Shown here: positions 1,023 to 17,065 of the stretch, piece after piece | How positions within the stretch are numbered: the first letter of the stretch is position 1 | How the letters are laid out: the number at the start of each line of letters is the position of its first letter | Assembly: GCA_011364965.1 (NCBI GenBank) | Contig: RDOB01000001.1 | Span: forward strand, 1-64,000 | DNA from: Candidatus Heimdallarchaeota archaeon | Lineage (GTDB): Archaea > Asgardarchaeota > Heimdallarchaeia > Hodarchaeales > Hodarchaeaceae | Reading direction: 5' to 3' | Length of the DNA: 64,000 nt | Translations under genes and position numbers: made by a program | The notes under the pieces: generated by a model | The model's input: only the letters and a program-made list of their open reading frames with translations | Database searches by the model: none | What the model was told of the DNA's origin: nothing

Positions 1023-1454
1023 TCAATTTTGATATTGATATTTGAAAAGATAATATGGATTTTCCTCAGGTCCCAAAAACAAAAATGCTCCTCGAAGTGT
1101 TAAAAGGTTTATAGACACCACAATGCCTAGAGTTCCTTTATTAATTGTAACTAATGAGAATGTTATAATTAATAAGCTTATTACGGTACCAGTAAGGATC
1201 ATGGTACGGTGTAGTTTCTTAGTTCGAAACTTTCTTTGTAAAGGATCCTCCTCTGCAAACGCATAATCGATAGCTAATATACTAAGATTGTAAGTAAGAA
1301 TAGCGGCCCAAATTAAAAAAAACACAAAGATAAAGAGCATCATCACGATATCTAAACCTATAATAATTCTAGTAACCTCGTATAAAGAATCAAATACAAT
1401 TAATACGACAACAAGGATACCTAAACCGATATCAAAGCGATTGAGGGAATTCAT
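1023..1454 (-). CDS. Hypothetical membrane protein (about 4 TM)
   Basis: 143 aa ORF with four hydrophobic stretches. Confidence 0.6.
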   Translation of the reverse strand: MNSLNRFDIGLGILVVVLIVFDSLYEVTRIIIGLDIVMMLFIFVFFLIWAAILTYNLSILAIDYAFAEEDPLQRKFRTKKLHRTMILTGTVISLLIITFSLVTINKGTLGIVVSINLLTLRGAFLFLGPEENPYYLFKYQYQN

Positions 1455-1545
1455 TCTTTACAGAGAATTCGCGGAGTTTAATGTTTTAAATATGTAATAT
1501 TAATGAAATTAGGGTTTCGCTAGAAAATAGAGGATTCTCTCTTTT

Positions 1546-1731
1546 TCACTCTTTTTTAAAAGAGAAGAAAACCTTTTTTTCCGCGAAACATACAGGACAG
1601 ACCCAATCGTTTGGGAGTCTTGTAAAAGGGGTACCTGGTTTAATTCCTAATACTGCGTCACCTATTTCAGGTTTGTAAATATACCCACATACCCTACAAC
1701 AGAACCATCCTTCTATCATTGAGATAAACAA
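1546..1731 (-). CDS. Rubredoxin
   Basis: CRVCGYIY...PGTPF..LP.DWVCPVC rubredoxin signature. Confidence 0.92.
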   Translation of the reverse strand: MFISMIEGWFCCRVCGYIYKPEIGDAVLGIKPGTPFTRLPNDWVCPVCFAEKKVFFSFKKE

Positions 1732-1756
1732 CTTTAAATCGATATTTCACTTTTTC

Positions 1757-2776
1757 TCAGTTTCCATCTATTATCCCTTCCGATGTGACGGAAAATACAG
1801 CTTCACTTTCCGGGAGAAGAGGACTATCAACAATTCTAGCAATTCTAAGATCACCCTTAGATTTTCTCAAATAAACACGGGTTTGAGCGGCATGAGCAAC
1901 AATATTTCCACCGACAGGATAAGTTGGATCTCCAAAGAATTGATCTGGTTTTGATTGAACCTGATTTGTGACAATTACAGCCATATTTCCTATTTCCGCT
2001 GCTCTCAATATTGTATGTATGTGTTGATTCAACTTTTGCTGCCTAGCTGCAAGTGTACCTCTTCCTGTGAATTCAGCACGAAAATGAGCAATAAGTGAAT
2101 CGACAACCATTAACTTAACAGGTTCCTTAGGAAGGTAATCTTTGATTGTTTTTTCAACTAGAACCATTTGGTGGTCGCTATTATGGGCTCGACCGTGAAG
2201 AATGTTTTCTAAGACCTTTTCGACATCAAGATCCTCTTTAAACCTTTCTGCCATCGAAACTATTCTTTCGGGTCTGAAAGTTCCTTCACTATCAATATAC
2301 ATCACCTTCGGATACTCATCACCATCACGTAAACCTCCTTTCTCCCGAGGTAATTGGACTGTTACACATAATTGATGAGCAACCTGAGTTTTTCCTGAAC
2401 GATATTCTCCATAAAATTCTGTTACAGCCCCTGTTTCGATCCCTCCACCAAATAACATATCTAATTTCTGACTTCCGGTAGTGATCTTTGCTAAATCCTT
2501 TCGTCTTTCTAAAACAGACTTTGCTGTCTCAAAATCGATATCAAGGGCTGCTTGCGCAGCTTCAATAATCTTCTTGACAGTTCTTTCGCCCATTCCACCT
2601 ATAGCAGCCAATTCACCCACTGATACAGTCGCAATTGATTCTAATGTTGAAAAACCAGCTTCAACTAGCTTGTTTGCTGTGGTTGGTCCAATTCCTGGAA
2701 GATCTGTTATCGATGTAATCTTTGGTTCATCTTTCGAGGGGGGTTCACTAGTTTCAGCTTTTTTCTTAGGTGTCAT
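1757..2776 (-). CDS. radA: DNA repair and recombination protein RadA
   Basis: N-terminal HhH (LPGIGP), FETA polymerisation motif, Walker A GEYRSGKT, YIDSEGTFRPER, RQQKL, GGNIVAH. Confidence 0.97.
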   Translation of the reverse strand: MTPKKKAETSEPPSKDEPKITSITDLPGIGPTTANKLVEAGFSTLESIATVSVGELAAIGGMGERTVKKIIEAAQAALDIDFETAKSVLERRKDLAKITTGSQKLDMLFGGGIETGAVTEFYGEYRSGKTQVAHQLCVTVQLPREKGGLRDGDEYPKVMYIDSEGTFRPERIVSMAERFKEDLDVEKVLENILHGRAHNSDHQMVLVEKTIKDYLPKEPVKLMVVDSLIAHFRAEFTGRGTLAARQQKLNQHIHTILRAAEIGNMAVIVTNQVQSKPDQFFGDPTYPVGGNIVAHAAQTRVYLRKSKGDLRIARIVDSPLLPESEAVFSVTSEGIIDGN

Positions 2777-3192
2777 TTTTTCTCCTGTCCTTAACTATCT
2801 GCTATATTATGATTAATTTGATCCAATATTCCTCTGAATGAGCCTTCTTTTTTATTCAAAATAATATAATGATAATTTGAATCAATTTAGGCCTTAAATG
2901 AATATTGATCTTTTGGAAATTCTCCTGTAGAAACATTCAATATAACTTTATTAAGTGCTTCGATGAGATTCACCTCAAACTCGCAAATTTCAATCCTATT
3001 TCTTAAAGACTCTAAAGAACGGACTTTTCAAATTAAAAATGCAAAGATTAATATCTTCAATTCAGCTTTTCTCTCTTAATTCCTGTTAGATTTTATTAGG
3101 GAATACAAAAATCCTTAAATCCATCATATAGTGATACACTTCTATAGTGTTAGGAATCACAATAACTATCTGTGAATAAAGAATAAAACAGA

Positions 3193-4119
3193 ATGGGATC
3201 AAACTTGAACATTATCAGATATTCTATGCCTAAATTAAATCTGGGTCGCTTTCTTCACATTCGAAGACGTGCAATTTCTCCAGTTATTGCAACTATCATG
3301 ATTTTCGGTTTAATCATAACAGGTGTAATGATTACATTTATTCAAGTACTTCCCTACATTGAAAAAGCAAAAAGCCAAGAATCGGTTTCAGCGGTACAGA
3401 ATAGCTTCCTTGAATTGGATACTGCTATCAAATCACTAATTAGTGAAAGTGGATCTCCTGGGGGTTATAGAACGGTTTTTGTTCAAAAACCTCAAGGTAG
3501 AATTGATTATATACCCAATCGTAATTTTGTATCTTTTGGTCTTAAAGATCAAGATGATAATTCTATACTCATGATTTTACAGGAACAGGGAATGGGATTA
3601 TTAGATTGGCAATATAGTAGTCCACAATCTCTTCTTCCTCGTGGAACAACGAAATTCTTAACAGGTCCTGATCCTTATAAAACGCGGAATCCTGTTTTCC
3701 TCACTGGTACTTTCTCAAACGAAGAGTATAATGATCTAACAAATTTGACTTTAAGTCATCAGAATGACCGAAAACATCATATTTCTTTAAATTATCGAAT
3801 TTCCGTTTATTTAACTATTTCTACTCAACCAAACCCTCAGATTCAGATTCAAGTCTTTTTGATAATTCTATCAGCAGATTTTAATTCAATTTTCTCTCAA
3901 TATAAACAATTTTCGATACGTTCAACTCAAAATATTTCCACGCCAGTTAATATTCCAAAAAATGATTCAATAGCAGAATTAAATCTTGTGTGGAAGAATG
4001 AAAAAATGCAGACATTTGATTCACTCTGGAATACAAAAGCGATTCAAGGATTCGAACCGAAATATTTCGATATTGTGATTCAAACTTATATATTTGAAAT
4101 TGGTTTATCTACAACCTAA
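3193..4119 (+). CDS. Type IV pilin-like protein with class III signal peptide
   Basis: RRRA|ISPVIATIMIFGLII: basic residues, Ala at -1, then a hydrophobic helix; first gene of the pilus operon. Confidence 0.8.
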   Translation: MGSNLNIIRYSMPKLNLGRFLHIRRRAISPVIATIMIFGLIITGVMITFIQVLPYIEKAKSQESVSAVQNSFLELDTAIKSLISESGSPGGYRTVFVQKPQGRIDYIPNRNFVSFGLKDQDDNSILMILQEQGMGLLDWQYSSPQSLLPRGTTKFLTGPDPYKTRNPVFLTGTFSNEEYNDLTNLTLSHQNDRKHHISLNYRISVYLTISTQPNPQIQIQVFLIILSADFNSIFSQYKQFSIRSTQNISTPVNIPKNDSIAELNLVWKNEKMQTFDSLWNTKAIQGFEPKYFDIVIQTYIFEIGLSTT

Positions 4120-4140
4120 GAAAATGGATTTGGTCAAGAA

Positions 4141-4587
4141 ATGGCGTCTCAATATATTACTTTCATGATTGTTTTCATATTGGGATTAAGTGTTGTTGTG
4201 ATGACAAACACTATGTTCATATCCATGAGCGCACAATTTCAAGAAAATATTGCAGATATCGAAATGGATCAAATATTGAGCAGAGTAAGACTTAATCTTC
4301 AAGAAATGATACTTTTAGTATCAGATTCTAATTTAACTATCCAAAGAGAAATAGATCTTCCCACAATCCTAGGTGAAAGGTTTAGATATTCGATTGATCT
4401 TTCAAATACGACAACCCATATCATTATCAAAGGTTACACAATTAATAGAGAAATATATCAGACAATGGCTTTCTCTATAGAAAATAAATATATTATTCAT
4501 ACCTCAGGTGTTTTTCAAAGCACTTCTAAATTACTAAATCTTAATGTGAGGATTACCTCTAATTTCCTCACAATTTCAATATCCTAA
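4141..4587 (+). CDS. Minor pilin-like protein (N-terminal hydrophobic helix)
   Basis: N-terminal TM helix, an LPTILG..FRYSI segment like archaeal accessory pilins, and operon context. Confidence 0.6.
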   Translation: MASQYITFMIVFILGLSVVVMTNTMFISMSAQFQENIADIEMDQILSRVRLNLQEMILLVSDSNLTIQREIDLPTILGERFRYSIDLSNTTTHIIIKGYTINREIYQTMAFSIENKYIIHTSGVFQSTSKLLNLNVRITSNFLTISIS

Positions 4588-4619
4588 AAAATGATACGAT
4601 AAATATTTAGTCTAACAAG

Positions 4620-6140
4620 GTGAATGAAGTAATGGCCGAATCAAGTAGCTTAATTCGTGAAACATATCCACTAATCCCTCCTTTTAGCTATGCACTTGTT
4701 GCTACAGATCCAGAAACAAAACAAACGAAATATACTGTAGTAGAAGTGCCATTAAGTACAAAAGAAAAAGATATTTTAGATATGGTAAAAAATATCCTCG
4801 AAGAAGAGCTTGATGTTGATTTTAACGTTCTTAAAAGTCCAGATGTAGCTCGAGATTATTTGAGATCAAAAGTTATTGCAATTGCAAAAGATTACGGTCT
4901 TAAATTAGATGAAAAAACCTTTGATAAAATAAATTACCATATAGCACGAGATTTTGTTGGTTTCGGCCCGATAGATGCTATGTTGAAAGATCATAACGTA
5001 GAAGATATATCCTGTGATGGTGTAGGAATTCCAGTCTATATTTGGCATCGAAAATTTGAAAGTATCCAAACAAATGTAAAATTTGATAATGAAGATGATC
5101 TAGACGCATTTATTATTAAATTGGCACAGCGGGCTGGAAGGCATATTAGTGTTGCAAGACCTTTACTAGATGCTGCATTGCCAGATGGCAGTCGATTACA
5201 ATTAACGTATGGCAGAGAGGTCACGCAAAGGGGAAGTACATTTACTATTAGAAAATTCCGTTCAGATCCACTTACAATAACAGATATGGTGATTTTTAAT
5301 ACGATTGATGAAGATCTAGCAGCATTTTTATGGTATGTATTGGAAAATAGAAATTCCATTGTGATTGCAGGAGGTACCGCTGCAGGTAAAACCTCATTAC
5401 TTAACAGTTTAGCAATGTTTATTCGTCCAGGTATGAAGATTGTATCTATTGAAGACACTGCAGAATTACACATTCCACATGAAAATTGGATTCCTGCAGT
5501 TGCAAGGGAGGGTTATGGCGGAAGGGAAATGGATGGATCACGACGGGGTGAGGTTTCAATGTATGATCTTCTCCGTGCTGCTTTAAGACAAAGACCTGAT
5601 TATCTTTTCGTAGGAGAAGTAAGAGGAGCGGAAGCTTACAATCTTTTCCAAGCCATGGCTACTGGGCATACTGGAATGGGCACAATCCACGGGGATAGTG
5701 TAACTGGAACCATTAGAAGGTTAGAAAATGAACCAATGAATATTCCGCGAACATTAATTCAAACACTGAATTTCCTTCTTGTTCTTCGAAAAGTACGAAG
5801 GGGAGACAAACAAGTTCGTCGTGTAATTGAGTGTACTGAGATCGTAGGGATAGATCCCGTAACAACAGAACTCATTACAAACAAGGTATTTGGTTGGAAC
5901 GCAAGAGAAGATTCCTATATCAACTATGGACGGTCTTATGCTTTAGAGGGAATACAAGAAGGCCAAGGATTGACAGAAAACCAGGTTTATGAGGAATTAG
6001 ATCGTCGGAAGACAATTTTACGTTGGATGGTGAAAAAGAAACTTGCTCATTATTCTCAAGTAGCTGAGGTAGTAAATAATTATTATCAAAATCCTCTTGA
6101 AACAGTTGATAGAGCAAAACGAGAATTAAAGTCTCTGTAA
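4620..6140 (+). CDS. Type IV pilus/archaellum-family assembly ATPase (PilB/FlaI/TadA-like)
   Basis: EDISCDG, Walker A GGTAAGKT, SIEDTAE, ALRQRPD, VGEVRGAEA, His box GHTG..TIH. Confidence 0.95.
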   Translation: MNEVMAESSSLIRETYPLIPPFSYALVATDPETKQTKYTVVEVPLSTKEKDILDMVKNILEEELDVDFNVLKSPDVARDYLRSKVIAIAKDYGLKLDEKTFDKINYHIARDFVGFGPIDAMLKDHNVEDISCDGVGIPVYIWHRKFESIQTNVKFDNEDDLDAFIIKLAQRAGRHISVARPLLDAALPDGSRLQLTYGREVTQRGSTFTIRKFRSDPLTITDMVIFNTIDEDLAAFLWYVLENRNSIVIAGGTAAGKTSLLNSLAMFIRPGMKIVSIEDTAELHIPHENWIPAVAREGYGGREMDGSRRGEVSMYDLLRAALRQRPDYLFVGEVRGAEAYNLFQAMATGHTGMGTIHGDSVTGTIRRLENEPMNIPRTLIQTLNFLLVLRKVRRGDKQVRRVIECTEIVGIDPVTTELITNKVFGWNAREDSYINYGRSYALEGIQEGQGLTENQVYEELDRRKTILRWMVKKKLAHYSQVAEVVNNYYQNPLETVDRAKRELKSL

Positions 6141-6147
6141 TAGATGC

Positions 6148-7071
6148 ATGGAGTGTCCTTCTGTGAGTAAATTTATCCGAAGAGTTGGTTATCTTAGATT
6201 TGGAAGATATTTGGAGCCATTATTTGAAAAGGGACGATTTGAACGATTAAATACAAGTCTAAAGAAGGCAGGAATGGATATATCGATACGAGCCTACTTA
6301 GGAAGTGCTCTTTTAACCTCAATTTTGCTTACAATTTTCGTATTTATATTCTCATTTTTGACTTTGAACATTGTATTCCAAAATATCACTCCAGATACAC
6401 CACCAGAAAACATATTGACTGTTTCTTTAATTCTTGGAATTTTTTTGGGTATACTTACTGGAATATTTACTTATTTCCCCTTCCTTTATTGGCCTCAGAT
6501 GAAAGCAACGGATAGAAAAATTCTAATTGAAGCAGGCTTAACTTCAACTGCATCGTACTTATCTGCTATGTCGAGTTCGGGAGTTCCCCCTGATAGATTG
6601 TTTTATTCGTTAGCAGGAGAAGAATCAGTTGCACCTGAAATTTCAAAGGAGAGTAAACGTATCACAAGAGATATTGAAATATTTGGGTATGATATTCTAA
6701 AGGCATTAAGAACTGCAGCTGAACGTTCTCCATCCGAGAGATTCGCAAAATTTCTTGATGGTATGTCTGCAACCATTACAAGTGGAGGAGATTTAACGTT
6801 TTTCTTAGCTGCAGAAACAACTGCTTTGATGAAGGTTAAAGAAGAAGAAACTAAAGAATTTATAGATCAATTAGGAGTTCTTGCAGAAATCTTCATGATT
6901 GTTGGGGTTGTTGCTCCCTTATTTTTTGTAGTAATTCTTGCTATTCTTGCTGTTATAAGCCCTGAAGCAACTCTGGGCCAAGTTTTCATGATTTTCTTAA
7001 CATACTTCATAATGCCTATTCTACTTGTTATTATGAATTTAATGGTTAGTACAATTTCAAGAGAAATCTGA
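6148..7071 (+). CDS. Type IV pilus membrane platform protein (TadC/PilC/FlaJ-like) 1
   Basis: T2SSF-like segment (SSGVPP...FGYDILKAL..AAERSPS..F..FL.G...TITSGGDL) with flanking TM helices. Confidence 0.9.
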   Translation: MECPSVSKFIRRVGYLRFGRYLEPLFEKGRFERLNTSLKKAGMDISIRAYLGSALLTSILLTIFVFIFSFLTLNIVFQNITPDTPPENILTVSLILGIFLGILTGIFTYFPFLYWPQMKATDRKILIEAGLTSTASYLSAMSSSGVPPDRLFYSLAGEESVAPEISKESKRITRDIEIFGYDILKALRTAAERSPSERFAKFLDGMSATITSGGDLTFFLAAETTALMKVKEEETKEFIDQLGVLAEIFMIVGVVAPLFFVVILAILAVISPEATLGQVFMIFLTYFIMPILLVIMNLMVSTISREI

Positions 7072-7093
7072 TCAATATGGAGGTACAAGGATA

Positions 7094-8056
7094 TTGGTAA
7101 AGTTGTCTAAAAAGCGCGAACGAAACCTTTGGATTTTATCTATTGCATTGTTCATAATTAGCTTACCTGTAGGGTTATTATTCTACACTCCCCTAATCGA
7201 ACACTTATTTCAAGTACAACCTCCAACCATTTCAGACCCTCCCTTACCTGAAGGTGAAACTCATCCTTATATCTATTCAATTAGAGAAGTATTTAACATT
7301 GGATTCTTTGATATTATTGATATAACTGCATTAGCTATACTCGCTCTTATTCTGTTACCTGCATTAGCTTACAGATCTGATCGAAACTGGAGGGATAATA
7401 TTGATGAACATATTCCATCCTTACTTAGAGAAATATCTGATGCCCAAAAAACAGGATTACCATTACCCCGAGCAATCATGGAATCATCTAAACATCAATA
7501 TGGTGCTCTTACTCCTGAGCTCAAAAAAATGGCAGCAAAAATTAGTTGGGGGATTCCTTTCTATGATGCACTTCGCAGTCTAACGGAAACTGCAGACACC
7601 CCCTTAATGAAGAGAACATCATTATTGATACTAGAAGCTGAAAGATCTGGTGGTGCAATTGAAGAGGTGTTTGAAGCAGCACATAAACATGTTTCAGAAA
7701 TCTTGGGGCTTAAAAGAGAACGGTTAGGGGCAATGAAACCTTATACTATGATAATTTATGCTTCATTCATTGTTTTTGCTCTAGTGATGCTCATTCTCCT
7801 CTATTCATTCTTTACAATACTCGCTCTTCAAATTGTTGAAGCAGTCGCAGAAGGGCAAAATCCCACCGCAAAGCTCCCCTTTAATTTAGCAGGATTACAA
7901 TTAATATTCTTCCACTTAATGCTAATTGAAGCTACCTTTGCAGGCCTAATTGCAGGAAAAATGGGTGAGGGAGACTCAAAATTAGGTTTAAGACACTCAT
8001 GTATACTAGTGGGGATCTCATATTTATTCTTTAAGATTCCGATATACTTTTTATAA
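7094..8056 (+). CDS. Type IV pilus membrane platform protein (TadC/PilC/FlaJ-like) 2
   Basis: TGLPL..AI...YGAL..EL..ISWGIPF..AL, SGG.I.EV, and C-terminal FAGLIAGKMGEG...GLRH. Confidence 0.9.
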   Translation: MVKLSKKRERNLWILSIALFIISLPVGLLFYTPLIEHLFQVQPPTISDPPLPEGETHPYIYSIREVFNIGFFDIIDITALAILALILLPALAYRSDRNWRDNIDEHIPSLLREISDAQKTGLPLPRAIMESSKHQYGALTPELKKMAAKISWGIPFYDALRSLTETADTPLMKRTSLLILEAERSGGAIEEVFEAAHKHVSEILGLKRERLGAMKPYTMIIYASFIVFALVMLILLYSFFTILALQIVEAVAEGQNPTAKLPFNLAGLQLIFFHLMLIEATFAGLIAGKMGEGDSKLGLRHSCILVGISYLFFKIPIYFL

Positions 8057-8075
8057 GCATAAGAGGTTGTAAAAA

Positions 8076-8534
8076 ATGGGAAAAGAAGAAAAAATGTTAA
8101 CAGAACTGCTAGAAAAAATCTCAACGCTGGAAGATAAGATTACAAACATGGAATTCCTCTTAGTTCAAGGTATGGGAACTGGAGGGGGATCACTTCCCAC
8201 TCCAAGTCCTTCAGTAAATACTGGTCAAATTCCAGCAGGCGCAGTAAAAGTTGACCTCGCTCCGATTGAAAATCGCATAACACTGATCGAAGAAAATGTT
8301 AAAGTAATTACAAATCAACTTACATCATTAACAGAAGTAACTAAAGGAATGCAGACTGAAAAAACACAAAAAGCAGATGAATTAATAACTCAAGCTACCA
8401 CCCTTCTTGAAAGAGGACTACAACTCACCGAGTTAGAGACAACAATGCTCGAGGTAAAAGATCGCCTTGAAGAAATTATTGTACAACTTGAGGTAGCAAA
8501 TGTAGGTGTAGTTAGTGAAGAAAAATCTTCGTAG
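8076..8534 (+). CDS. Coiled-coil hypothetical protein in the pilus operon
   Basis: Heptad-rich helices separated by a G/P/S linker; SD-like GAGG upstream. Confidence 0.65.
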   Translation: MGKEEKMLTELLEKISTLEDKITNMEFLLVQGMGTGGGSLPTPSPSVNTGQIPAGAVKVDLAPIENRITLIEENVKVITNQLTSLTEVTKGMQTEKTQKADELITQATTLLERGLQLTELETTMLEVKDRLEEIIVQLEVANVGVVSEEKSS

Positions 8535-8571
8535 AATGAAAAAGCTATAAGTTACAGGAATAATTAGAACG

Positions 8572-9753
8572 ATGAACAGGAAGATTGGCTTTTTATTCAA
8601 AAGAAGGAGAGGACAAATAAGAGCAGTGGATTTTGTTGTTAGCCTCTTTCTTTTTTTATTAATGCTATCACAACTAATCTTGTTAATCATTAATGTTCAA
8701 TCAGGAATAATTAGCACTCGTGAGGGATACATTTCATATGATGAATTAGATATTTTTGGAAGAGCAATTCTACAAAAAGAGGGGGATCCTAATTGGGGAT
8801 ATCAGCAAGGACTCCCTGACAATTTTGGTTTAGCCATAGAGAACTCACATTCAGGATTAACCTTAGATCCATCCAAAATTGCACGATTAATAACTGGTAC
8901 AACATATCCTATTTCTTCAGTATCAGGTTTTGATATATTTGACTATTCTACATTAAAGAATTGGATACATCTTGAATCAGAATATGATTTTCAACTTACA
9001 TTAACTCCGAGTCTAAATGTGGATTTATCAGTGACTTTAGAAAATACTTCATGGAACAATCTTGAAGTTTTTGTATCAGGATCCAATGAAATACCTATTG
9101 AGAACGCAATAGCTCAATTTTGGATACTTGATTTGACCGATAGGGAAATTATTAACAATGGAATTCAAACTACAGATCAATGGGGAGAAGCAGTAATTCA
9201 ATATGAAGTACCAAATTTAAATGATCCAGAAAGAGCTCATATTCCAATAGTTATTGTTAGCAAATTTAATTTATGGGGATTAGACTGGGTCAATCCTAAT
9301 CTAGAAAGAGCTGTTGTTGGGACAGTCTCAAACACCACTTTATGGTTAGGAGGTACCTCTCCTTCAACAATGCTGGTTTCAGACATTTTGGAGTCTACAG
9401 GAACTCTTGATACCCACTTTTTATCAATATTATATGAAGATACCAATGGAGTCTACAAAAATATTTCATTAGACGTGTCTACAAGTCTCGATGCAAATGA
9501 ATCACTTGGTATTCCTAGTGAGGGACTAGTAGTATGTTTTAGCATTTCCAAATTTGATAGTGTCTATAAAGTAGGAGTAGGGACATATCCAGCCATATTA
9601 GACAATGACTTATCAGCTTCTGGATCATTTTACCAAATTTTTGGAGAACTGACTTTTCCTGACCGAATCAGAGCAATGATCTCCAAAGATTTTCCAGTAA
9701 TTGTCCGAGGTTTGTCAATGAAGTGTCAAATTACACTTTGGAGGGAAGGTTAA
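8572..9753 (+). CDS. Large minor pilin/adhesin with GQ-type class III signal
   Basis: KRRRG|QIRAVDFVVSLFLFLL followed by a beta-rich extracellular region. Confidence 0.8.
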   Translation: MNRKIGFLFKRRRGQIRAVDFVVSLFLFLLMLSQLILLIINVQSGIISTREGYISYDELDIFGRAILQKEGDPNWGYQQGLPDNFGLAIENSHSGLTLDPSKIARLITGTTYPISSVSGFDIFDYSTLKNWIHLESEYDFQLTLTPSLNVDLSVTLENTSWNNLEVFVSGSNEIPIENAIAQFWILDLTDREIINNGIQTTDQWGEAVIQYEVPNLNDPERAHIPIVIVSKFNLWGLDWVNPNLERAVVGTVSNTTLWLGGTSPSTMLVSDILESTGTLDTHFLSILYEDTNGVYKNISLDVSTSLDANESLGIPSEGLVVCFSISKFDSVYKVGVGTYPAILDNDLSASGSFYQIFGELTFPDRIRAMISKDFPVIVRGLSMKCQITLWREG

Positions 9754-9757
9754 AACT

Positions 9758-10255
9758 TTGTTAAACAAAAGAAAAGGACAATTACAGATTGCAGAAACTT
9801 TAGTTTCTGTCACCTTAATGCTAGCTCTTGCTCTCCTTTTAATTAGTGCTGCTAACCAATTAACTTCACCTTCAACAGACTTTACATATTTAAATCAAAC
9901 CGCAGAAGATATTCTTGCCACAGCGGATGAATTAGGATTATTAAGACCATGTGTTTACCTATTTGGTAATATAAATTATGATGATGCATATACTCTCTAT
10001 CAGGATGCATTAATAGATTATATTAAGGTTCATATGCCACCCAAACTAGGTTATTCTTTGATTTGTCATGAAATCATTGATGGTAGTACAAATCCCTCTT
10101 ACTTTACCATCATTGGAACCTCTGCAGATATATTAGCTTATCAGGGGGATGCTATCGTTGTCGCTAATTACCATCTAGGATCTTTCAGTTCCTCAGAATT
10201 TGGATTATTTGATTTACAATATCTTGTTCAATTATTTATTTGGGAGAAGATCTAG
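9758..10255 (+). CDS. Minor pilin with GQ-type class III signal
   Basis: KRKG|QLQIAETLVSVTLMLAL. Confidence 0.8.
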   Translation: MLNKRKGQLQIAETLVSVTLMLALALLLISAANQLTSPSTDFTYLNQTAEDILATADELGLLRPCVYLFGNINYDDAYTLYQDALIDYIKVHMPPKLGYSLICHEIIDGSTNPSYFTIIGTSADILAYQGDAIVVANYHLGSFSSSEFGLFDLQYLVQLFIWEKI

Positions 10256-10969
10256 ATGAGAACGTTGAATCATATTAAGAGTAAAAGTAGAAGGGGACAA
10301 ATGTTTATTCTTGCAACAATGCTGATTGCAATCTACTTAGTTACGATGACTGCAGCTTTAATGAACCTAGGGGTATATCAAATTGATGTAGAACAAGATA
10401 TTATTCTCGAGCCCTATAATGATGTGAAACGAGAAATCCAATACTACTTGGAATTTCTATTGGCTGATTATTCATCCAATGAGTCAATTATTTCGCTCGA
10501 ACCATATATTGCTAGATTACAGTATTTTCTTCGTTCTCTAGAGCTTTCTTATACAGAAAGAGGAGTTCAGATTGATTTAATGCTTAAAACAAATGAATTT
10601 CACCTTCAATCTAATAAGCCTCCTTATAGTAATACAACGGATTCCACGGTATATATTAGTCAAATAGGTGCTATTTTTGAATTAAAGCTAAGTACAATCT
10701 CTAGTTCCTATTCAATCGAAGAAACCTTTTCTATTTCATATATAGGGCGAGCAGAGATAGATGATACCACTGTTATAGTACAAGAATCTAGGGGAAAACA
10801 ATTTCATTTTATAAATGCTTTTTCGATCTTTATTGATAATGGAAGCATTCTTATTCCATCATTATCTACAAATCAAATTGGAGTATACTCTTTCGAGACG
10901 ATAGGAGATATTAACAATCTTGGGATCCTATATATTACTTTAGAAAATGGGATCCGGATCTTTTCGTGA
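10256..10969 (+). CDS. Minor pilin with GQ-type class III signal
   Basis: SRRG|QMFILATMLIAIYLV. Confidence 0.8.
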   Translation: MRTLNHIKSKSRRGQMFILATMLIAIYLVTMTAALMNLGVYQIDVEQDIILEPYNDVKREIQYYLEFLLADYSSNESIISLEPYIARLQYFLRSLELSYTERGVQIDLMLKTNEFHLQSNKPPYSNTTDSTVYISQIGAIFELKLSTISSSYSIEETFSISYIGRAEIDDTTVIVQESRGKQFHFINAFSIFIDNGSILIPSLSTNQIGVYSFETIGDINNLGILYITLENGIRIFS

Positions 10970-10975
10970 AACCAT

Positions 10976-13900
10976 ATGAATAAACTTGAATTTGAAGAGT
11001 ACATTCAACAAATTAAGAAGAACTTGATTGTTCAACTTGAAATTGCTGCAAGTGCACGAAATAAAAGACTGGATCCGACTGATAAAATTGAGAGTATTTT
11101 ATCCTATAACCCAAAATCAAAAATTTCCGCGATATTAGACATTCCTGGTCTTGAAGATTTTCTTCCTGAAAATCTCACGAAGGTAGAAAATTTAGTAATT
11201 TTTTCTGCAAATATTGCAAGCCAAATTGTAAATGAACGATTTATAAAAAAACCAAGAGAGGATCTTATACTACTAGCTTTGCATAGCGCTTTGGTCATTT
11301 TAAGCCAGGGATTGATATCTGTTCCCCAAGAAAGTATCCCAAAAGTTTCGGTTAGCCCAAAATCAAACCATCTTACAATATATTTCTCAAATACGGTTCG
11401 ATATGTTGATGGGGAAGTTATTGGTTTGGTTATATTTATTGCTGATATTATAAGGGATATCTTGCATCTAGATAGATTTATTCCGACTCCAGAGCTAACA
11501 GGAAGATACGTTGAAGAATTGGAAATCTATTATAATTTAAATGATAAAATAAATTCGCTAAGAAGAGATATTGTTGAACTTCTTGTTTATAATATTGGTA
11601 TAGAAATTTCAGGGGAGCCATATGAGAGAATTGAGGTAATAAAATATAGAAATCTACCTAGTGTTACTAATCAGCTAAGAATGGGGATGTGTGTTGCAAT
11701 CGAACGATTTATTGAAAACATCAATGATATTGCTCTAAAAAGATTGAACTCTGGGATAATGAAATGGAACTGGCTTAAATATCCATTTTCAGGCTTAACG
11801 CGGAAAAAATTACAATTTGGACTTCACGATGTAAGAGCTACTCAACCGTTACTTTCTGAATCAAACAAACCTGGTGGATTCAGATTGAGATATGGATTAT
11901 CTAGAAATATTGGACAGGGAGCAGTAGGTATTCATCCTAGCATCATTTATCTTGTAAAATTACTTACTCCAGGAACTAATATCAGAATGGATGTATTAGA
12001 GGGAAACTTGACTGTTTTCCCAGTTATCAATATTTTGGGACCATTAGTGGAGCTAAAAGATGGTTCAGCGAGAAGAATGAAATCATTAGAGGAAACTAGG
12101 GCATTAGAAGACGAGATAGTTCAAATCTGGGAAATGGGGGATATATTATTATCACCAAACGATATACCTACAGCTGAAAGTATCGAGGAAACAGGATGGT
12201 CTGAAGAATGGTGGAGCGCAGAGATTTGGAAATATGTACATTCATATGCTAAATCTCTGGAGGTTTTAGCTGCAAGAACGGGGATAGACATTGAAAACCT
12301 CCGGGATTTTCTAGAGAAACCCACAGTAAATTCTCCGAATGCAAGTCAGGCAATAGGATTAGCAAAGGTAACTAAAATTCCATTGCACCCTTCCTTCTCT
12401 TTAAATTGGAATGAAATTACCATAAGCGAATTATTATGGTTGTTGAATAACCTTTCCTTTACTTCAGATGGATTTATACCTTTTTCAGAAGAGATGAGAC
12501 TTCTTTTCCTTCGTCTTGGTATGGAATTCAAATTAAAGGATAATCTATTTCATTCAGAACATACACTTATTTTTGAAGCTCTGAAAAAGAAAGAAAAACT
12601 TCTAAATTCGATTCTGATGGACAATCCTCACGCTTATACTGAAGAAATAGTATCTATGTTAATTGAGATACCATTAAAGTCATTATGTCAGCGAAGGATA
12701 GGTGTAAAAATAATAAAAGCTGAAAAAGCTGAACCTAGACAAATCAATCCTCCCGCTCATATTTTATTTCCTATAGGAAATTTCGGAGGTCCACAAAGGA
12801 ATTTGTTGAAAATATCTAAAGAAAAGCAATTTAAAGTTCAGTTATCAGAAAGATTCTGTCCAACTTGCGAAATATCCACGTTTACTGCTTTTTGTCCTAA
12901 ATGTAAACAGGAAACCGAACAACATTATATCTGTAGAGAAGGACATGTTTCAAAATCAAAAATTTGCGAACAATGTGATAATTATGGATTTCCAGCTCGT
13001 TACAAGCAAATTGATCTAGGTAAAATGATCGAGGTACAACTTAACAAAATTCAGGAATTCAAGATTAAGAAAATCAAAGGTATTTCCTACCTCAACAATC
13101 GATATAGAATACCTGAACACATAATGAAAGGAATTTTGAGATCGTATCGAAATTTATATGTTTATAAAGATGGTACTATTCGTTTTGATCAAACAAACGC
13201 CATATTGAGGTTCTTTAAACCAAAAGAGGTTAATTCGTCTATCGATAACCTGAAAAGACTTGGATATACTCATGATGTAAATGGAAATGATATAAATGAT
13301 GAAAACCAATTGTTAGAATTGTTTCCATACGATATTATTGTAAGTGAGAACGCTGCAGATTACTTAGTTGATATTGCAAAATTTTTAGATGATGAATTAA
13401 TTTATCTTTATGATATGTTACCTTATTTCAGAATAAATACGAAAAAAGATATCAACGGAATTTTAGTAGTTGGGATGTCTCCTTTTTCAATGGTTGGGGT
13501 AATTGGAAGGATAATTGGTTATTCAAGAAACAATGTACTTTATGCTCACCCCTTGTGGCACAAGCTGAAAACGAGAAATTGTTCGGGGAACATTGATTCT
13601 ATTGCTCATTTATTAGACATCTTTTTAAATTTCTCCAAAGAACTTGTTCCAAATGTCCGTGGAGGGTCCCTTGATGTTCCTAATATTATAAATCTGCCCG
13701 ATAGCTGGGAGGATACTCATATATACTCAAATTACCTATACATTCCATTGAATTTACAGTTTTATCAATCTCTAAAAGGGAACCCTTCTATCTCAGAGAT
13801 CCTGTCGTATAATGAATCTTTTTTAACACCTAAGAATTCCTTGCTATATACGATTGACGATATTTCCCTCTATGACATGAAAAATGACTTTCAAGAATCC

Positions 13901-14296
13901 AAAATCTTTAATAAAATTGAATCTGAACTTAAGATCCTCCGAGTAATACGAGGTGTAAATGAAGGAGAATTTGTGGATAAAATTCTTGAATATGACCTAT
14001 TAGAGAAAATTTCAGGGTCATTTGACAGATTTTTCCTGCAGCCAGTGCGATGCAAAGCTTGTAACAAAACCTTTAGACGTGTTCCAATCTCTGATTCATG
14101 CCCGAATTGTCAGCGAAAAACGCTAACCTTGACTCTATCAGAGGGATGGGTACTTAGGTACTTGCAAATTGTGAAAGAATTGAAAGAGAAATACTCAGAT
14201 GATATATCGGATTATTCTAAATCGTGGATTGATTTAATAGATTTGAATAAACGATTATACTTTGATAGAGGCCCTCGTCATACTACTCTTATCTGA
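10976..14296 (+). CDS. polC: DNA polymerase D large subunit (DP2) homologue, predicted catalytically inactive
   Basis: DP2 motifs GGFRLRYG, PPAHILFPIG..GG, KGILR...VYKDGTIRFD, GRIIG, LNFS, RGG..D.P and Zn ribbons are present. The catalytic RNCDGDED reads RNCSGNID and there is no C-terminal PIP box. Confidence 0.9.
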   Translation: MNKLEFEEYIQQIKKNLIVQLEIAASARNKRLDPTDKIESILSYNPKSKISAILDIPGLEDFLPENLTKVENLVIFSANIASQIVNERFIKKPREDLILLALHSALVILSQGLISVPQESIPKVSVSPKSNHLTIYFSNTVRYVDGEVIGLVIFIADIIRDILHLDRFIPTPELTGRYVEELEIYYNLNDKINSLRRDIVELLVYNIGIEISGEPYERIEVIKYRNLPSVTNQLRMGMCVAIERFIENINDIALKRLNSGIMKWNWLKYPFSGLTRKKLQFGLHDVRATQPLLSESNKPGGFRLRYGLSRNIGQGAVGIHPSIIYLVKLLTPGTNIRMDVLEGNLTVFPVINILGPLVELKDGSARRMKSLEETRALEDEIVQIWEMGDILLSPNDIPTAESIEETGWSEEWWSAEIWKYVHSYAKSLEVLAARTGIDIENLRDFLEKPTVNSPNASQAIGLAKVTKIPLHPSFSLNWNEITISELLWLLNNLSFTSDGFIPFSEEMRLLFLRLGMEFKLKDNLFHSEHTLIFEALKKKEKLLNSILMDNPHAYTEEIVSMLIEIPLKSLCQRRIGVKIIKAEKAEPRQINPPAHILFPIGNFGGPQRNLLKISKEKQFKVQLSERFCPTCEISTFTAFCPKCKQETEQHYICREGHVSKSKICEQCDNYGFPARYKQIDLGKMIEVQLNKIQEFKIKKIKGISYLNNRYRIPEHIMKGILRSYRNLYVYKDGTIRFDQTNAILRFFKPKEVNSSIDNLKRLGYTHDVNGNDINDENQLLELFPYDIIVSENAADYLVDIAKFLDDELIYLYDMLPYFRINTKKDINGILVVGMSPFSMVGVIGRIIGYSRNNVLYAHPLWHKLKTRNCSGNIDSIAHLLDIFLNFSKELVPNVRGGSLDVPNIINLPDSWEDTHIYSNYLYIPLNLQFYQSLKGNPSISEILSYNESFLTPKNSLLYTIDDISLYDMKNDFQESKIFNKIESELKILRVIRGVNEGEFVDKILEYDLLEKISGSFDRFFLQPVRCKACNKTFRRVPISDSCPNCQRKTLTLTLSEGWVLRYLQIVKELKEKYSDDISDYSKSWIDLIDLNKRLYFDRGPRHTTLI

Positions 14297-14447
14297 AATA
14301 TAGATACCTAACATGTTTAATGTGATTAATTCCGTGTTTACAATGCAAAGCTTTTTTTAACTTCAGATTTACAATAATCTTGATAATCAACTTTTATTGA
14401 TATTCCTAATTAAATCCTCAAAAGTCAATTGCTGTGAAGGCGTCAAA

Positions 14448-15053
14448 ATGATTGATAATGAAAGAGAAGTCTTAATTGGTACATTATTAGAAGCTCAGAA
14501 AAAGAAAATCGTAATGATTTCAAGTGACAAACCTGTTACTAAGGCAGCAAAACTGATGGCTGAAAGTAAAGTCGGATCAGTTGTCATCAAGAATGACATA
14601 ATTGAGGGAATAATTACCAAAGGTGATATCATTAATCGTGTATTGGGAAAAGCTTTAGATCCTGGAATCATTTTAGTTGCTGACGTAATGAGTAAGCCAA
14701 TAATTTACATTTCATCTGACGAAACTCTTGAAAATACAATGCTTCAGATGGCCAAGGAAAATATCGAGAGAATTTTGGTCGTGGAAGACAACGACTTAAG
14801 TAAACCTTTAGGAATAATTTCAACTAATGATATTATAAAATTTGCACCAGGATTACTTCGCATAAGAAGAGAAAAACTCTTGATTGGAGCGGAACTTGAA
14901 TCTGATGGCAGAAATTTGGAATTTCAAGGATTTTGTGATGACTGTGGAAATTTCTCACTTAACTTAAGGACAACAAATGGATATACTCTTTGTCCAGATT
15001 GCTTTGGGTCTCAAAGGGAAGAGGATATAGGATCTGATGATGAAATCATGTAA
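14448..15053 (+). CDS. CBS-pair protein with C-terminal Zn ribbon
   Basis: Two CBS repeats (GIIT.GDI, GIIST.DI) plus CDDC...CPDC. ATG 14448 preferred to TTG 14397. Confidence 0.85.
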   Translation: MIDNEREVLIGTLLEAQKKKIVMISSDKPVTKAAKLMAESKVGSVVIKNDIIEGIITKGDIINRVLGKALDPGIILVADVMSKPIIYISSDETLENTMLQMAKENIERILVVEDNDLSKPLGIISTNDIIKFAPGLLRIRREKLLIGAELESDGRNLEFQGFCDDCGNFSLNLRTTNGYTLCPDCFGSQREEDIGSDDEIM

Positions 15054-15055
15054 AA

Positions 15056-17065
15056 TTAATCCACCTCTGAAATCATAGAATCATGAGGAATGAATTTCAC
15101 AAATTCATTCAAATCAATTCCCTTAACTTTCGCTTTATCTTCATTAGTATTAATTTTTTCATAAAAAATATTTTGAATCTGTTTGGCTAATTTACCTTTA
15201 GGGGTAGATCCTGGCTTTATTGTCACAACAACTGGACTAATTTGCTCTATATGCTCTTTAGATCCGCAAATGACCATAGCATTGGATTCACGAAAATCTA
15301 CCCCGATTGATAATATCATTTCAACTCCTTTCACAAAATTTCGGGATCCTCTGACCATAATTCCTCCTCTGGGTATATATTCGCCACTTGGAGCCGTGAA
15401 ACTTACATTTTCTCCAGAAACGTAATAAACATCAATAGCACTATATCCTGCTTTCCATCCACTTGAGTAAACAGCTGCTAGTTTTGCAGCAGTATTGATA
15501 TCAGCCTCTTTAACAGCTTTTTCACTACTATTCATGATTAAGATAGTATAAGGTGCGCCGCGAAGATCAGCATGAAAAAATATATCCTCTGAAGTCATTC
15601 TCCTTTTAACTATGTATTCATTGCTTGAAATATCCCTTCCTCCTATTATTAAAAAACCATTAGGGGAAATACTCCAATGATATTTCTCATACCAGTTTCG
15701 TTTTCGTCTCTGAAGTATTATTGAGTCAGAAATTTTCTTCTCCTCAATATTTTCATTTAATTGTTCCAGTTTCAATTTAGTTTTTGCTAAAGCTTTTTGA
15801 GCTGGGATAATCTTCTTCGACGCTTTCTTTGAAAGTTGATAATATTCATTCGCAATTTCCGATGGCGATTTACGGAAATCTACTTCAATTTCCTCTGAAT
15901 CAAGCTTGATATTAATAATAGCTCTGTCAGGATTTAAAGATTTAAAGATTTGCAATCCCTTAATACCCTTCTCCTTTGCATTTTTTAGTTTGAAGATAAT
16001 TTCTTCCCAGCTAATATTTTTCCTTCTTGCATCAACAATAATTTTTAACAAATTCTCAATTTCACTAAAATTTTGATACACAAGATCTCCTAGTTCCTTG
16101 TATTTATCTTTTTTAAGATAGAACTCTTCAATTGCTTTCTCTTGAGAAGTCAAGACTTTTATAATCTTTTTCTTCTGTTTGGAATATGTTGTTTGATCTT
16201 CTGATTTTCTAGGAATATTGCTAATATAAAAATGATCTAAGGCCTTAGATAAATTTTCAAAGAATTTTCTTTTACAATCTGCAGATATAAGATTAATTGG
16301 CTGATAGGAAAATGGAGATTCATCAACAGTTAAACAAACTGAAGGAATTGGGTTATTTAATTCGCCTTTTATACTTGTTATTGCTAATAGGAAATTTTCT
16401 ATATCTTTGGGTGAAATATCGGTGATTTTCTTATTTTTAGGGATATCAGCGCGCTTTAAGATCTCCTCAATTAAGATTCCACCACCTCCAAGCTCGGAAG
16501 CGAAGAACCTTACTACTTCAATATCTTTTTGAACTGTTGTCTCCAAAAGCTGAATAATATCATTTTTTTCCATAGCTAATACAGATTTTCCTCTACTTGG
16601 AGGCAAAAAAAATTCTTTTCCTGGAAGTAAATCTCTGTGACGCATTTTTTTGTACCAAAGGGCAGAAATTACACGATTTTGTTCCCCTACTAGAACAAAA
16701 TTGGGATGAGTACCAAATAGTTCTACATATAGGTTGTAATTTTGCTTACCACTGAATTCCATCTGAATAATTCGATCGAATTCGACTTGCTTCAAGGTAA
16801 CCAGTTCAGCGCCTTTCAAGTGCTTTCTAATGGCCATTATTTTATCTGAGGGACGTTCTGGAATTGAATGTTTATATTCAGTTAAATAAAATCGAACTCC
16901 TGGTTCGATCAATAACATTGGACTTCTGAAAACCCCTTTACCCTTGAATTTAAAGAGATAATATCTATCATCTGAATCTCGGTAAATATTGTCGACACGA
17001 TACCCAATTAATGGTTGTAATTCCCTACTTATGACATAAATATCCATACTCGACATTTTCTTCAT
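15056..17065 (-). CDS. rqcH: Ribosome quality control factor RqcH/Rqc2/NEMF (NFACT family)
   Basis: MSSMDI, FDRII, YVELFG, coiled-coil middle, and NFACT-R motifs WYEKY.W, IGGRD...NE, FHAD..GAP, APSGEY. Confidence 0.92.
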   Translation of the reverse strand: MKKMSSMDIYVISRELQPLIGYRVDNIYRDSDDRYYLFKFKGKGVFRSPMLLIEPGVRFYLTEYKHSIPERPSDKIMAIRKHLKGAELVTLKQVEFDRIIQMEFSGKQNYNLYVELFGTHPNFVLVGEQNRVISALWYKKMRHRDLLPGKEFFLPPSRGKSVLAMEKNDIIQLLETTVQKDIEVVRFFASELGGGGILIEEILKRADIPKNKKITDISPKDIENFLLAITSIKGELNNPIPSVCLTVDESPFSYQPINLISADCKRKFFENLSKALDHFYISNIPRKSEDQTTYSKQKKKIIKVLTSQEKAIEEFYLKKDKYKELGDLVYQNFSEIENLLKIIVDARRKNISWEEIIFKLKNAKEKGIKGLQIFKSLNPDRAIINIKLDSEEIEVDFRKSPSEIANEYYQLSKKASKKIIPAQKALAKTKLKLEQLNENIEEKKISDSIILQRRKRNWYEKYHWSISPNGFLIIGGRDISSNEYIVKRRMTSEDIFFHADLRGAPYTILIMNSSEKAVKEADINTAAKLAAVYSSGWKAGYSAIDVYYVSGENVSFTAPSGEYIPRGGIMVRGSRNFVKGVEMILSIGVDFRESNAMVICGSKEHIEQISPVVVTIKPGSTPKGKLAKQIQNIFYEKINTNEDKAKVKGIDLNEFVKFIPHDSMISEVD

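Follow-up and report, generated by a model that had tools for sequence, protein, structure and literature searches.

A full-length family-D DNA polymerase large subunit stripped of its catalytic residues in Hodarchaeales and its possible role as a replisome scaffold

What is the large subunit of a replicative DNA polymerase for, once the residues that make it a polymerase are gone? The question is raised by a gene in a 64,000-nucleotide stretch of Candidatus Heimdallarchaeota archaeon (assembly GCA_011364965.1, contig RDOB01000001.1, positions 1 to 64,000 of the forward strand; hereinafter designated the window), which comes from the order Hodarchaeales. The gene, polC, lies at 10976-14296 on the plus strand and encodes full-length DP2, the large subunit of PolD (DNA polymerase of family D), whose obligate partner is DP1. 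Few known archaea are more closely related to eukaryotes than Hodarchaeales, and eukaryotes have discarded the catalytic core of PolD and kept its C-terminal domain and an inactivated DP1 as B-subunits. An initial annotation, made from the window sequence, read both catalytic aspartates of this DP2 as substituted, and proposed either that an active polC exists elsewhere, with this gene as its inactive paralogue, or that the lineage replicates with a family-B polymerase (PolB), a case that would bear on the switch from PolD to PolB at eukaryogenesis. Here we follow up both proposals by analysing the protein, its partner and its relatives.

Loss of the catalytic motifs

The open reading frame at 10976-14296 holds 1106 codons and zero stops, in agreement with the initial annotation; a stop-free frame of this length at 33.5% GC has a chance of ~3e-40. 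Pfam families PF03833, PF24844 and PF24846 match the N-terminal, central and catalytic domains with E values of 1e-37 to 1e-71, and phmmer aligns residues 5-1089 collinearly with Pyrococcus abyssi DP2 (6hms_B; E 8e-146). The AlphaFold2 (AF2) model of the protein (pLDDT 88, pTM 0.87) matches P. abyssi DP2 chains taken from DNA-bound complexes (6t8h_B and 8ppt_B) in Foldseek with template modelling (TM) scores of 0.80-0.82. The collinear domains and the fold with two double-psi beta-barrels (DPBB) identify the protein as a DP2/PolC homologue. With the canonical DP2 of P. abyssi and Thermococcus sp. 9 deg N (PDB 6HMS, 6T8H and 8PPT) it has in common the order of the domains, a fold of two barrels (TM 0.8), the Zn-I, Zn-II and Zn-III modules and an RRxP motif, whereas the catalytic residues of the acidic (a), basic (b) and selectivity (s) motifs and the C-terminal PCNA-interacting protein (PIP) box of the canonical enzyme are lost from the Hodarchaeales protein. 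All NCBIfam equivalog cut-offs for polC are missed (741 bits against 1269 for PRK04023, 647 against 702 for TIGR00354), and scores below these cut-offs explain why many DP2 orthologues are deposited as 'hypothetical protein'. Close homologues carry the labels Hodarchaeales, Heimdallarchaeota (B3_Heim among them) or Promethearchaeota.

The a-motif reads K865-T-R-N-C-S870-G-N872-I-D874 (13568-13597), compared with the canonical K-R-R-N-C-D-G-D-E-D. Codons 13574-13597 (AGA AAT TGT TCG GGG AAC ATT GAT) encode RNCSGNID at residues 867-874, which pairs with RNCDGDED of P. abyssi DP2 in the phmmer alignment with no gaps, placing S870 opposite D956 and N872 opposite D958; the serine and asparagine that the initial annotation had read at the two Mg-binding positions are therefore confirmed at the level of both codons and alignment. 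D956 and D958 are the two invariant catalytic aspartates of P. abyssi DP2 (Sauguet 2016). Mutants D964A and D966A of 9 deg N PolD abolish synthesis, and alanine mutants of P. horikoshii PolD are likewise inactive (Zatopek 2020). Both catalytic positions carry the D-x-D pattern in 82 of the 82 canonical DP2 sequences in our alignment, so the change to S870 and N872 is not ordinary variation. The dNTP-binding arginine of the same motif, R960 in the 9 deg N enzyme, corresponds to T866, and R960A lowers synthesis by 9 deg N PolD (Zatopek 2020).

The b-motif and s-motif are eroded as well, as the initial annotation had noted for the segments it read as MDVLEG and GMSPFSM. In the b-motif, R337-M-D-V340-L-E-G343 (11984-12004) stands for the canonical K-x-E-R-P-G-K, and the lysine that contacts the primer 3' end (9 deg N K398) is replaced by G343 here and by arginine in the clade consensus. 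With K398A, fewer than 15% of primers (<15%) are extended by 1 nt by 9 deg N PolD (Zatopek 2020), and the equivalent lysine-to-arginine change kills E. coli RNA polymerase. In the s-motif, P836-F837-S838 (13481-13489) takes the place of P-H-T, so that GLAPHTS reads GMSPFSM and the steric-gate histidine has become phenylalanine; this histidine positions the dNTP, and H931 is required for dNTP binding (Zatopek 2020).

The protein ends in GPRHTTLI. Its C-terminal tail (14255-14293) is LYFDRGPRHTTLI, after a clade-specific conserved tail LLFDKGPRPTTLI in place of the canonical PIP box; DP2 throughout the genus has swapped the PIP box for this different conserved tail, compared with the KQxSLxxF-type PIP box or a close variant of it in most of the 82 canonical sequences. 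The absence of Qxx(L)xxFF before the terminal RHTTLI, also part of the initial annotation, holds against this larger set. None of the marks of an active DP2 (the two aspartates, the b-motif lysine, the s-motif histidine, a C-terminal PIP box and a score above the NCBIfam cut-off) is found in the protein, and at the level of residues DP2 is predicted to be no longer able to polymerise DNA.

An assembly error at the a-motif is ruled out by contigs of three studies that carry the same codons. Logan contigs from marine sediment, mangrove and soil metagenomes (depth 6-26), some of whose runs may represent the source sample itself, cover 12800-14300 and differ there at 0-2 positions, none of them within 13583-13591. 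TCG and AAC are retained at 13583 and 13589, where the initial annotation had named GAT or GAC codons in the reads as the observation that would speak against it, and TCG, the codon of S870, is at least two substitutions away from any aspartate codon.

Distribution of the inactivated subunit and the state of DP1

The genome (2.97 Mb in 16 contigs, 87% complete) contains one DP2, one DP1 and three family-B polymerases. Searches of this 87%-complete assembly with PF24846 and with the protein itself find no second DP2, and 20 same-genus genomes, among them a closed 4.9-Mb genome, each carry one; two apparent double matches are fragments of one gene.

The inactivation extends through the clade. 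In ~38 genus-level DP2 sequences and one from the sister family the first catalytic aspartate is asparagine (rarely lysine or serine, and aspartate once), and the motif takes the form NCNGD[IV]D or NCNG[AV]xD in the same genus and TANGDID in one sister-family genome; in the other sister-family genome (G022) it is degenerate and unrecognisable. Other families of Heimdallarchaeia keep NCDGDED. In the DP2 tree, which is rooted on a canonical sequence since the very long sister-family branches make the midpoint root misleading, the genus and the sister family form one clade with support 1.0 and with the B3_Heim sequence (P0031) inside it. The stem branches of this clade measure 0.60 and 0.51; the median for internal branches among canonical sequences is 0.07. 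Canonical DP2 has 171 positions with an invariance of at least 93%. The clade consensus retains the residue at 117 of these and has a different one at 39; the substitutions are concentrated in the three catalytic motifs (a, b and s), GxRxGRPEKA and a segment H..D..GN, and many of the replacement residues are at least 90% conserved inside the clade. One Logan contig (P0015) is the sole sequence of the clade with DGDID. We rejected it as a remnant of the ancestral state: it is nested deep inside the NGDID clade and is therefore either a reversion (AAT to GAT) or an error. Many Heimdallarchaeia DP2 genes (L032-L036 and other same-class loci) carry an intein at RRNC| in the catalytic loop, and no intein was found at this site in the ~40 Hodarchaeales DP2 sequences with the dead motif, including the present one.

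An inactive DP2 in Hodarchaeales has been known since 2020. A 'Heimdall_B3/LC3-like' group without active DP2 was described and tied to an acquired PolB group with a Zn-finger tail, B10 (Kazlauskas et al. 2020, NAR 48:10142, PMC7544198). The link to a PolD-to-PolB switch drawn in the initial annotation fits this picture and is not new, as the same paper drew it for Heimdall B3 and LC3. In the literature that we searched, no other paper mentions the inactive Hodarchaeales PolD, and a replisome survey of 2025 takes the Hodarchaeal DP2 as plainly present. The present genome is a further and more eroded case. It belongs to the same clade as the described group, with an active site likewise substituted, a B10 PolB in the same genome and a divergent or inactivated DP1. 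It differs in the a-motif, which is N-G-A-T-D in the B3_Heim type, N-G-D-I-D in most of the genus and S-G-N-I-D here. The earlier study covered two metagenome-assembled genomes, without an analysis of selection.

The pair S870/N872 is unique among the ~40 Hodarchaeales DP2 sequences. Otherwise the second aspartate is lost just in the B3_Heim subclade, where it is alanine or valine, and in one sister-family genome. The three independent losses of D872 imply that this residue is no longer essential in the clade.

The erosion also reaches DP1, of which the genome has a single gene, found on contig C12 in the search that the initial annotation had proposed. The 515-aa protein is encoded next to orc1/cdc6; the two genes (orc1/cdc6 at L002 68-1330, plus strand; DP1 at 1342-2889, minus strand) are convergent and 11 nt apart, which may be an origin-proximal arrangement. 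Motif III of this DP1 reads PGERDA, compared with GEHD in 18 other same-genus DP1 sequences and GNHD in relatives from the class. The replaced histidine corresponds to the proton donor H451 of P. abyssi, and H451A is the standard exonuclease-deficient variant. The G-N-H-D histidine of an active Mre11-like 3'-5' exonuclease is absent, and proofreading by DP1 has, judging by this motif, very probably been lost as well. As far as residues tell, both PolD activities are here without the side chains experimentally shown to be essential. By comparison, the DP1 of B3 was judged possibly active, with all five motifs present, and the DP1 of LC3 inactive and very divergent (PMC7544198, Suppl. Figs S15/S16), whereas motif III here is GERD and the catalytic histidine is gone. 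DP1 was not found in two sister-family genomes or in G007 with our DP1 or PF04042 as queries; these genomes are 71-85% complete and LC3 DP1 is very divergent according to Kazlauskas et al., so that this non-detection is uninformative.

Constraint, DP1 docking and the family-B polymerases

If DP2 no longer polymerises, is it still under selection? Among orthologue pairs with synonymous divergence (dS) of 0.35-1.4, the Nei-Gojobori ratio of nonsynonymous to synonymous divergence (dN/dS) is 0.09-0.14 overall. By domain it is 0.05-0.13 for the N-terminal domain, 0.11-0.18 for the central domain, 0.06-0.12 for DPBB-2 and 0.03-0.12 for the C-terminal domain (CTD), with extremes of 0.03 and 0.21; the ratio for DP1 is 0.14-0.21. 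The purifying selection proposed in the initial annotation is thus borne out among the orthologues. On the terminal branch that leads to the present protein, dS is saturated against every relative (proportion of synonymous differences, pS, 0.75-0.82), so that we judged this branch by conserved sites kept and by relative rates. Of the 117 canonical-invariant sites kept by the clade consensus, 110 are also present here, and clade-invariant sites are matched at 87-94% per domain despite an overall identity of 57%. As a measure of relative rate, we divided the distance of this genome's protein to a sister pair by the distance that separates the two members of that pair; the ratio is 2.42 for DP2 and 1.45-2.10 for six control proteins (DP1, B10, PolB1 and three other proteins of the window), which points to a modest acceleration at most and not to neutral decay. 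Neither of the two signs of a pseudogene, a disrupted frame or neutral evolution, is seen in this gene.

The modules around the lost active site are kept, and the conserved zinc ribbons of the initial annotation are supported by the cysteines in our alignments A1 and A3. The Zn-I/Zn-II modules (12857-12976) comprise C628, C631, C640, C643, C653, C664 and C667, six of which are invariant in the 42-sequence alignment A3, with C664 nearly so (at least 90%). The Zn-III module (C1026, C1029, C1042 and C1045; 14051-14110) contains the docking motif R1034-R1035-x-P, and all Zn-III and RRxP columns are invariant in both alignments. In P. abyssi, R1131 and R1132 of DP2 dock into the groove between the oligonucleotide-binding and phosphodiesterase (OB/PDE) domains of DP1. 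A model of DP1(118-515) with DP2(975-1106) reaches an interface score (ipSAE) of 0.89, compared with 0.01 for the best control, the mark on this scale being attained by 58 out of 80 complexes with solved structures and by 2 out of 110 pairs of mismatched proteins. Runs agree in at least 81% of contacts with partner pLDDT of at least 80, and the modelled interface includes R1034-V1036 and the last helix of DP2. The DP1-DP2 interface looks preserved, though the model may show likeness alone as the P. abyssi complex is solved. The Zn-III module, the RRxP loop and the C-terminal helices, which mark the PolD holoenzyme, are all recognised, by conservation and by predicted interface. The N-terminal domain of DP1 is conserved in the genus.

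Three intact family-B polymerases are available for DNA synthesis. In Crenarchaeota, which lack PolD, the replicase belongs to the PolB1 family. The window encodes a PolB1-type enzyme of 898 aa at 58732-61428 on the minus strand, a candidate replicase that has every one of the Exo I-III and Pol A-C motifs and ends in the PIP box QINLMDFF; its motifs uphold the initial annotation, and its best PDB match is PolB1 of S. solfataricus (1s5j, E 1e-167). PolB1 occurs in 39 of 41 Heimdallarchaeia genomes and is therefore older than the inactivation of DP2. The PolB1 orthologue of one same-genus genome (G012:C289; L074/L076) has 1231 aa, with a ~330-aa insert near query residues 529-531 that is probably an intein. 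A second, B3-like enzyme with intact exo and pol motifs is encoded on contig C11. The third, B10, is a 1467-aa PolB on contig C9 with DxxSMYPS, ELDTDG and a CSEC...CIFC tail, and its best PDB matches are catalytic subunits of Pol epsilon. In the product of the B10 gene (L067:1525-5928), the polymerase domain also holds a Cys-rich insert, and the terminal Zn finger is preceded by a long basic linker of low complexity.

B10 is found in 20 of 21 same-genus genomes, 2 of 2 sister-family genomes and 0 of 17 from other Heimdall families; within the search of 41 genomes it is limited to Hodarchaeales, the same distribution as that of the dead DP2. This match represents one evolutionary event and not a statistical association. 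Replication by a PolB, the second proposal of the initial annotation, fits the three intact enzymes and is kept here as a proposal: judging by their motifs, PolB1, the B3-like PolB and B10 would carry out DNA synthesis and proofreading, and among them would be the replicase of the genome.

A candidate replisome scaffold and the alternatives to it

We consider it fairly probable that the polymerase-dead DP1-DP2 pair is kept as a replisome scaffold while the family-B polymerases synthesise DNA. The loss of residues, the single copy, the clade-wide spread, the purifying selection among orthologues and the retained docking motif are the observations from which we infer a scaffold or helicase-linked role. 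In the proposed mechanism, both PolD activities would have been lost and DP1-DP2 kept by selection as a non-enzymatic module, which would dock on the Cdc45-MCM-GINS (CMG) helicase via the N-terminal domain of DP1 and GINS and organise or stimulate the replisome. Synthesis and proofreading would have passed to PolB1, the PolB3-like enzyme and the Pol-epsilon-like B10, and the DNA cleft of DPBB-2 would still be used, perhaps for DNA binding. There is precedent for the contacts in this scheme. In T. kodakarensis the N-terminal domain of DP1 binds Gins51C, in an arrangement (DP1N-Gins51C) homologous to Dpb2N-Psf1C of Pol epsilon, and DP1 and DP2 together, neither of them alone, raise the ATPase activity of MCM-GINS 5-11 fold and also unwinding. 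A PriL of heimdallarchaeal origin interacts with the CTD of DP2 in the yeast two-hybrid system.

Two known systems resemble this arrangement in part. Pol epsilon of eukaryotes, with the dead C-terminal PolB module of Pol2 and with Dpb2, a DP1 homologue that has been inactivated, likewise keeps a dead polymerase body and a nuclease-dead B-subunit for replisome and CMG assembly. In the present case the dead module has the two-barrel core of family D rather than a family-B fold and forms a protein of its own, without fusion to the active polymerase; the likeness would be one of functional analogy. In Aenigmarchaeota and Baldrarchaeia (PMC7544198, PMC12680538), as here, a PolB synthesises DNA and the DP1 module survives, but DP2 is lost there and DP1 is kept with a PolB-DP2CTD fusion, whereas the whole DP2 is kept here and the tail of B10 is a different Zn finger. 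This Zn finger shows no binding to Hodarchaeal DP1 in yeast two-hybrid assays.

Several points weigh against a scaffold role. The loss of the C-terminal PIP box (cPIP), to which primase also binds in Thermococcales, removes one known scaffold contact. DP2 stands at the end of a pilus operon (described below), a position that the replisome model leaves unexplained. With dS saturated, selection on the protein's own branch is read solely from the conserved sites that it keeps, and the acceleration of DP2 and the loss of D872 and of the DP1 histidine could mark a relaxation toward decay. In one relative (G015; L014, C1), an in-frame TGA lies at an invariant glycine codon (G237 in our protein) and is directly followed by ATG, splitting DP2 into parts of ~238 and ~868 aa. 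This TGA could be a nonsense mutation, a split gene or a sequencing error; if it is real, DP2 may be dispensable in G015. Finally, DPBB-2 is among the most constrained domains (dN/dS 0.06-0.12), as a pure scaffold does not obviously predict; conservation of this domain may reflect DNA binding or another retained function of the cleft.

The operon in question is type IV pilus-like and lies directly upstream of DP2 (3193-10969, plus strand; recognised by Pfam and N-termini). It comprises a pilin-like gene, a PilB-type ATPase (4620-6140, plus strand), two PilC/T2SSF genes and genes for four small proteins, of which three have RGQ-type N-termini, and it ends 6 nt before the DP2 start, a gap of 6-10 nt in same-genus loci. 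The PilB-type ATPase is 91-94% identical to its same-genus orthologues, an unusually strong conservation next to 42-75% for its neighbours and 48-56% for DP2. On its other side the operon diverges from radA (Rad51 family, E 2e-91; 1757-2776, minus strand). Downstream of DP2 follow a CBS-pair protein (14397-15053, plus strand) and a homologue of NFACT, a ribosome quality control factor (15056-17065, minus strand), both syntenic across the genus, and three distant genomes of the genus share the whole block radA / pilus operon / DP2 / CBS / NFACT. The order of pilus genes and DP2 is kept in all same-genus loci examined and is absent in the sister family. We treat this neighbourhood as context.

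The conserved order (radA diverging from pilin, PilB, two PilC genes, four small proteins, DP2 and CBS) does invite a different account, in which the dead DP2, instead of or besides acting as a scaffold, would have been co-opted for DNA binding or handling in DNA uptake or recombination linked to the type IV pilus; its transcript would then be shared with the pilus operon, which runs divergently from radA. The order persists with gaps of 8-10 nt even where same-genus DP2 proteins are 47-57% identical and dS is saturated. We regard a role at the pilus, whether instead of or besides one as a scaffold, as very unlikely, since the sister family has the inactivated motif and lacks the neighbourhood, so that the juxtaposition postdates the inactivation; furthermore, the gene of the obligate partner DP1 adjoins orc1/cdc6 on another contig, the motif that docks DP1 is retained, and unrelated genes often share an operon in archaea. 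A functionless relic in slow decay would account for the erosion beyond that of relatives (the second aspartate, the b-motif lysine-to-glycine change and the DP1 histidine), for the highest relative-rate ratio of the seven proteins tested and for the TGA in a relative. Such decay is hard to reconcile with a frame of 1106 codons intact at 33.5% GC (P ~3e-40), with the match to 87-94% of clade-invariant sites, with an intact DP1 and with the three single-nucleotide polymorphisms seen in DP2 across independent samples, two of which are synonymous and one a glutamate-to-aspartate change, and we hold it to be very unlikely.

Could the protein instead have kept a nucleotidyl-transfer or other metal-dependent activity at an altered site? 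In the clade consensus N870-G-D872-I-D874, a register shifted by +2 (N-x-D-x-D) would offer such a site; N870 is present in 95% of clade sequences and D874 in all of them save the highly degenerate G022, and DPBB-2 has the lowest dN/dS. The shifted triad is S-x-N-x-D here, however, with a single carboxylate left; two further losses of D872, one in a sister-family genome and one in the B3_Heim subclade (A/V), are independent, the essential lysine is arginine, as in the inactivating exchange in E. coli RNA polymerase, or glycine, and the steric-gate histidine is phenylalanine. An altered-site activity appears highly improbable on these grounds. The first proposal of the initial annotation, an inactive paralogue beside an active polC, would place the active gene in the unassembled 13% of the genome, which at 87% completeness leaves room for one. 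With a single DP2 here and in the 20 same-genus genomes, the closed 4.9-Mb one included, and with the Hodarchaeales DP2 sequences found all of the inactive type, this proposal is not borne out, and we give a hidden active copy almost no credence.

A living lineage with a dead and strongly constrained DP1-DP2 beside a Pol-epsilon-like PolB would represent a natural intermediate for the eukaryotic transition, and the lineage would allow one to ask about the non-polymerising roles of PolD, such as CMG activation and contact with primase. Of the cases seen in the main family, that of the present genome is the most eroded; with the two catalytic aspartates and the DP1 histidine gone, it makes the cleanest candidate in which to test a purely non-enzymatic role of PolD.

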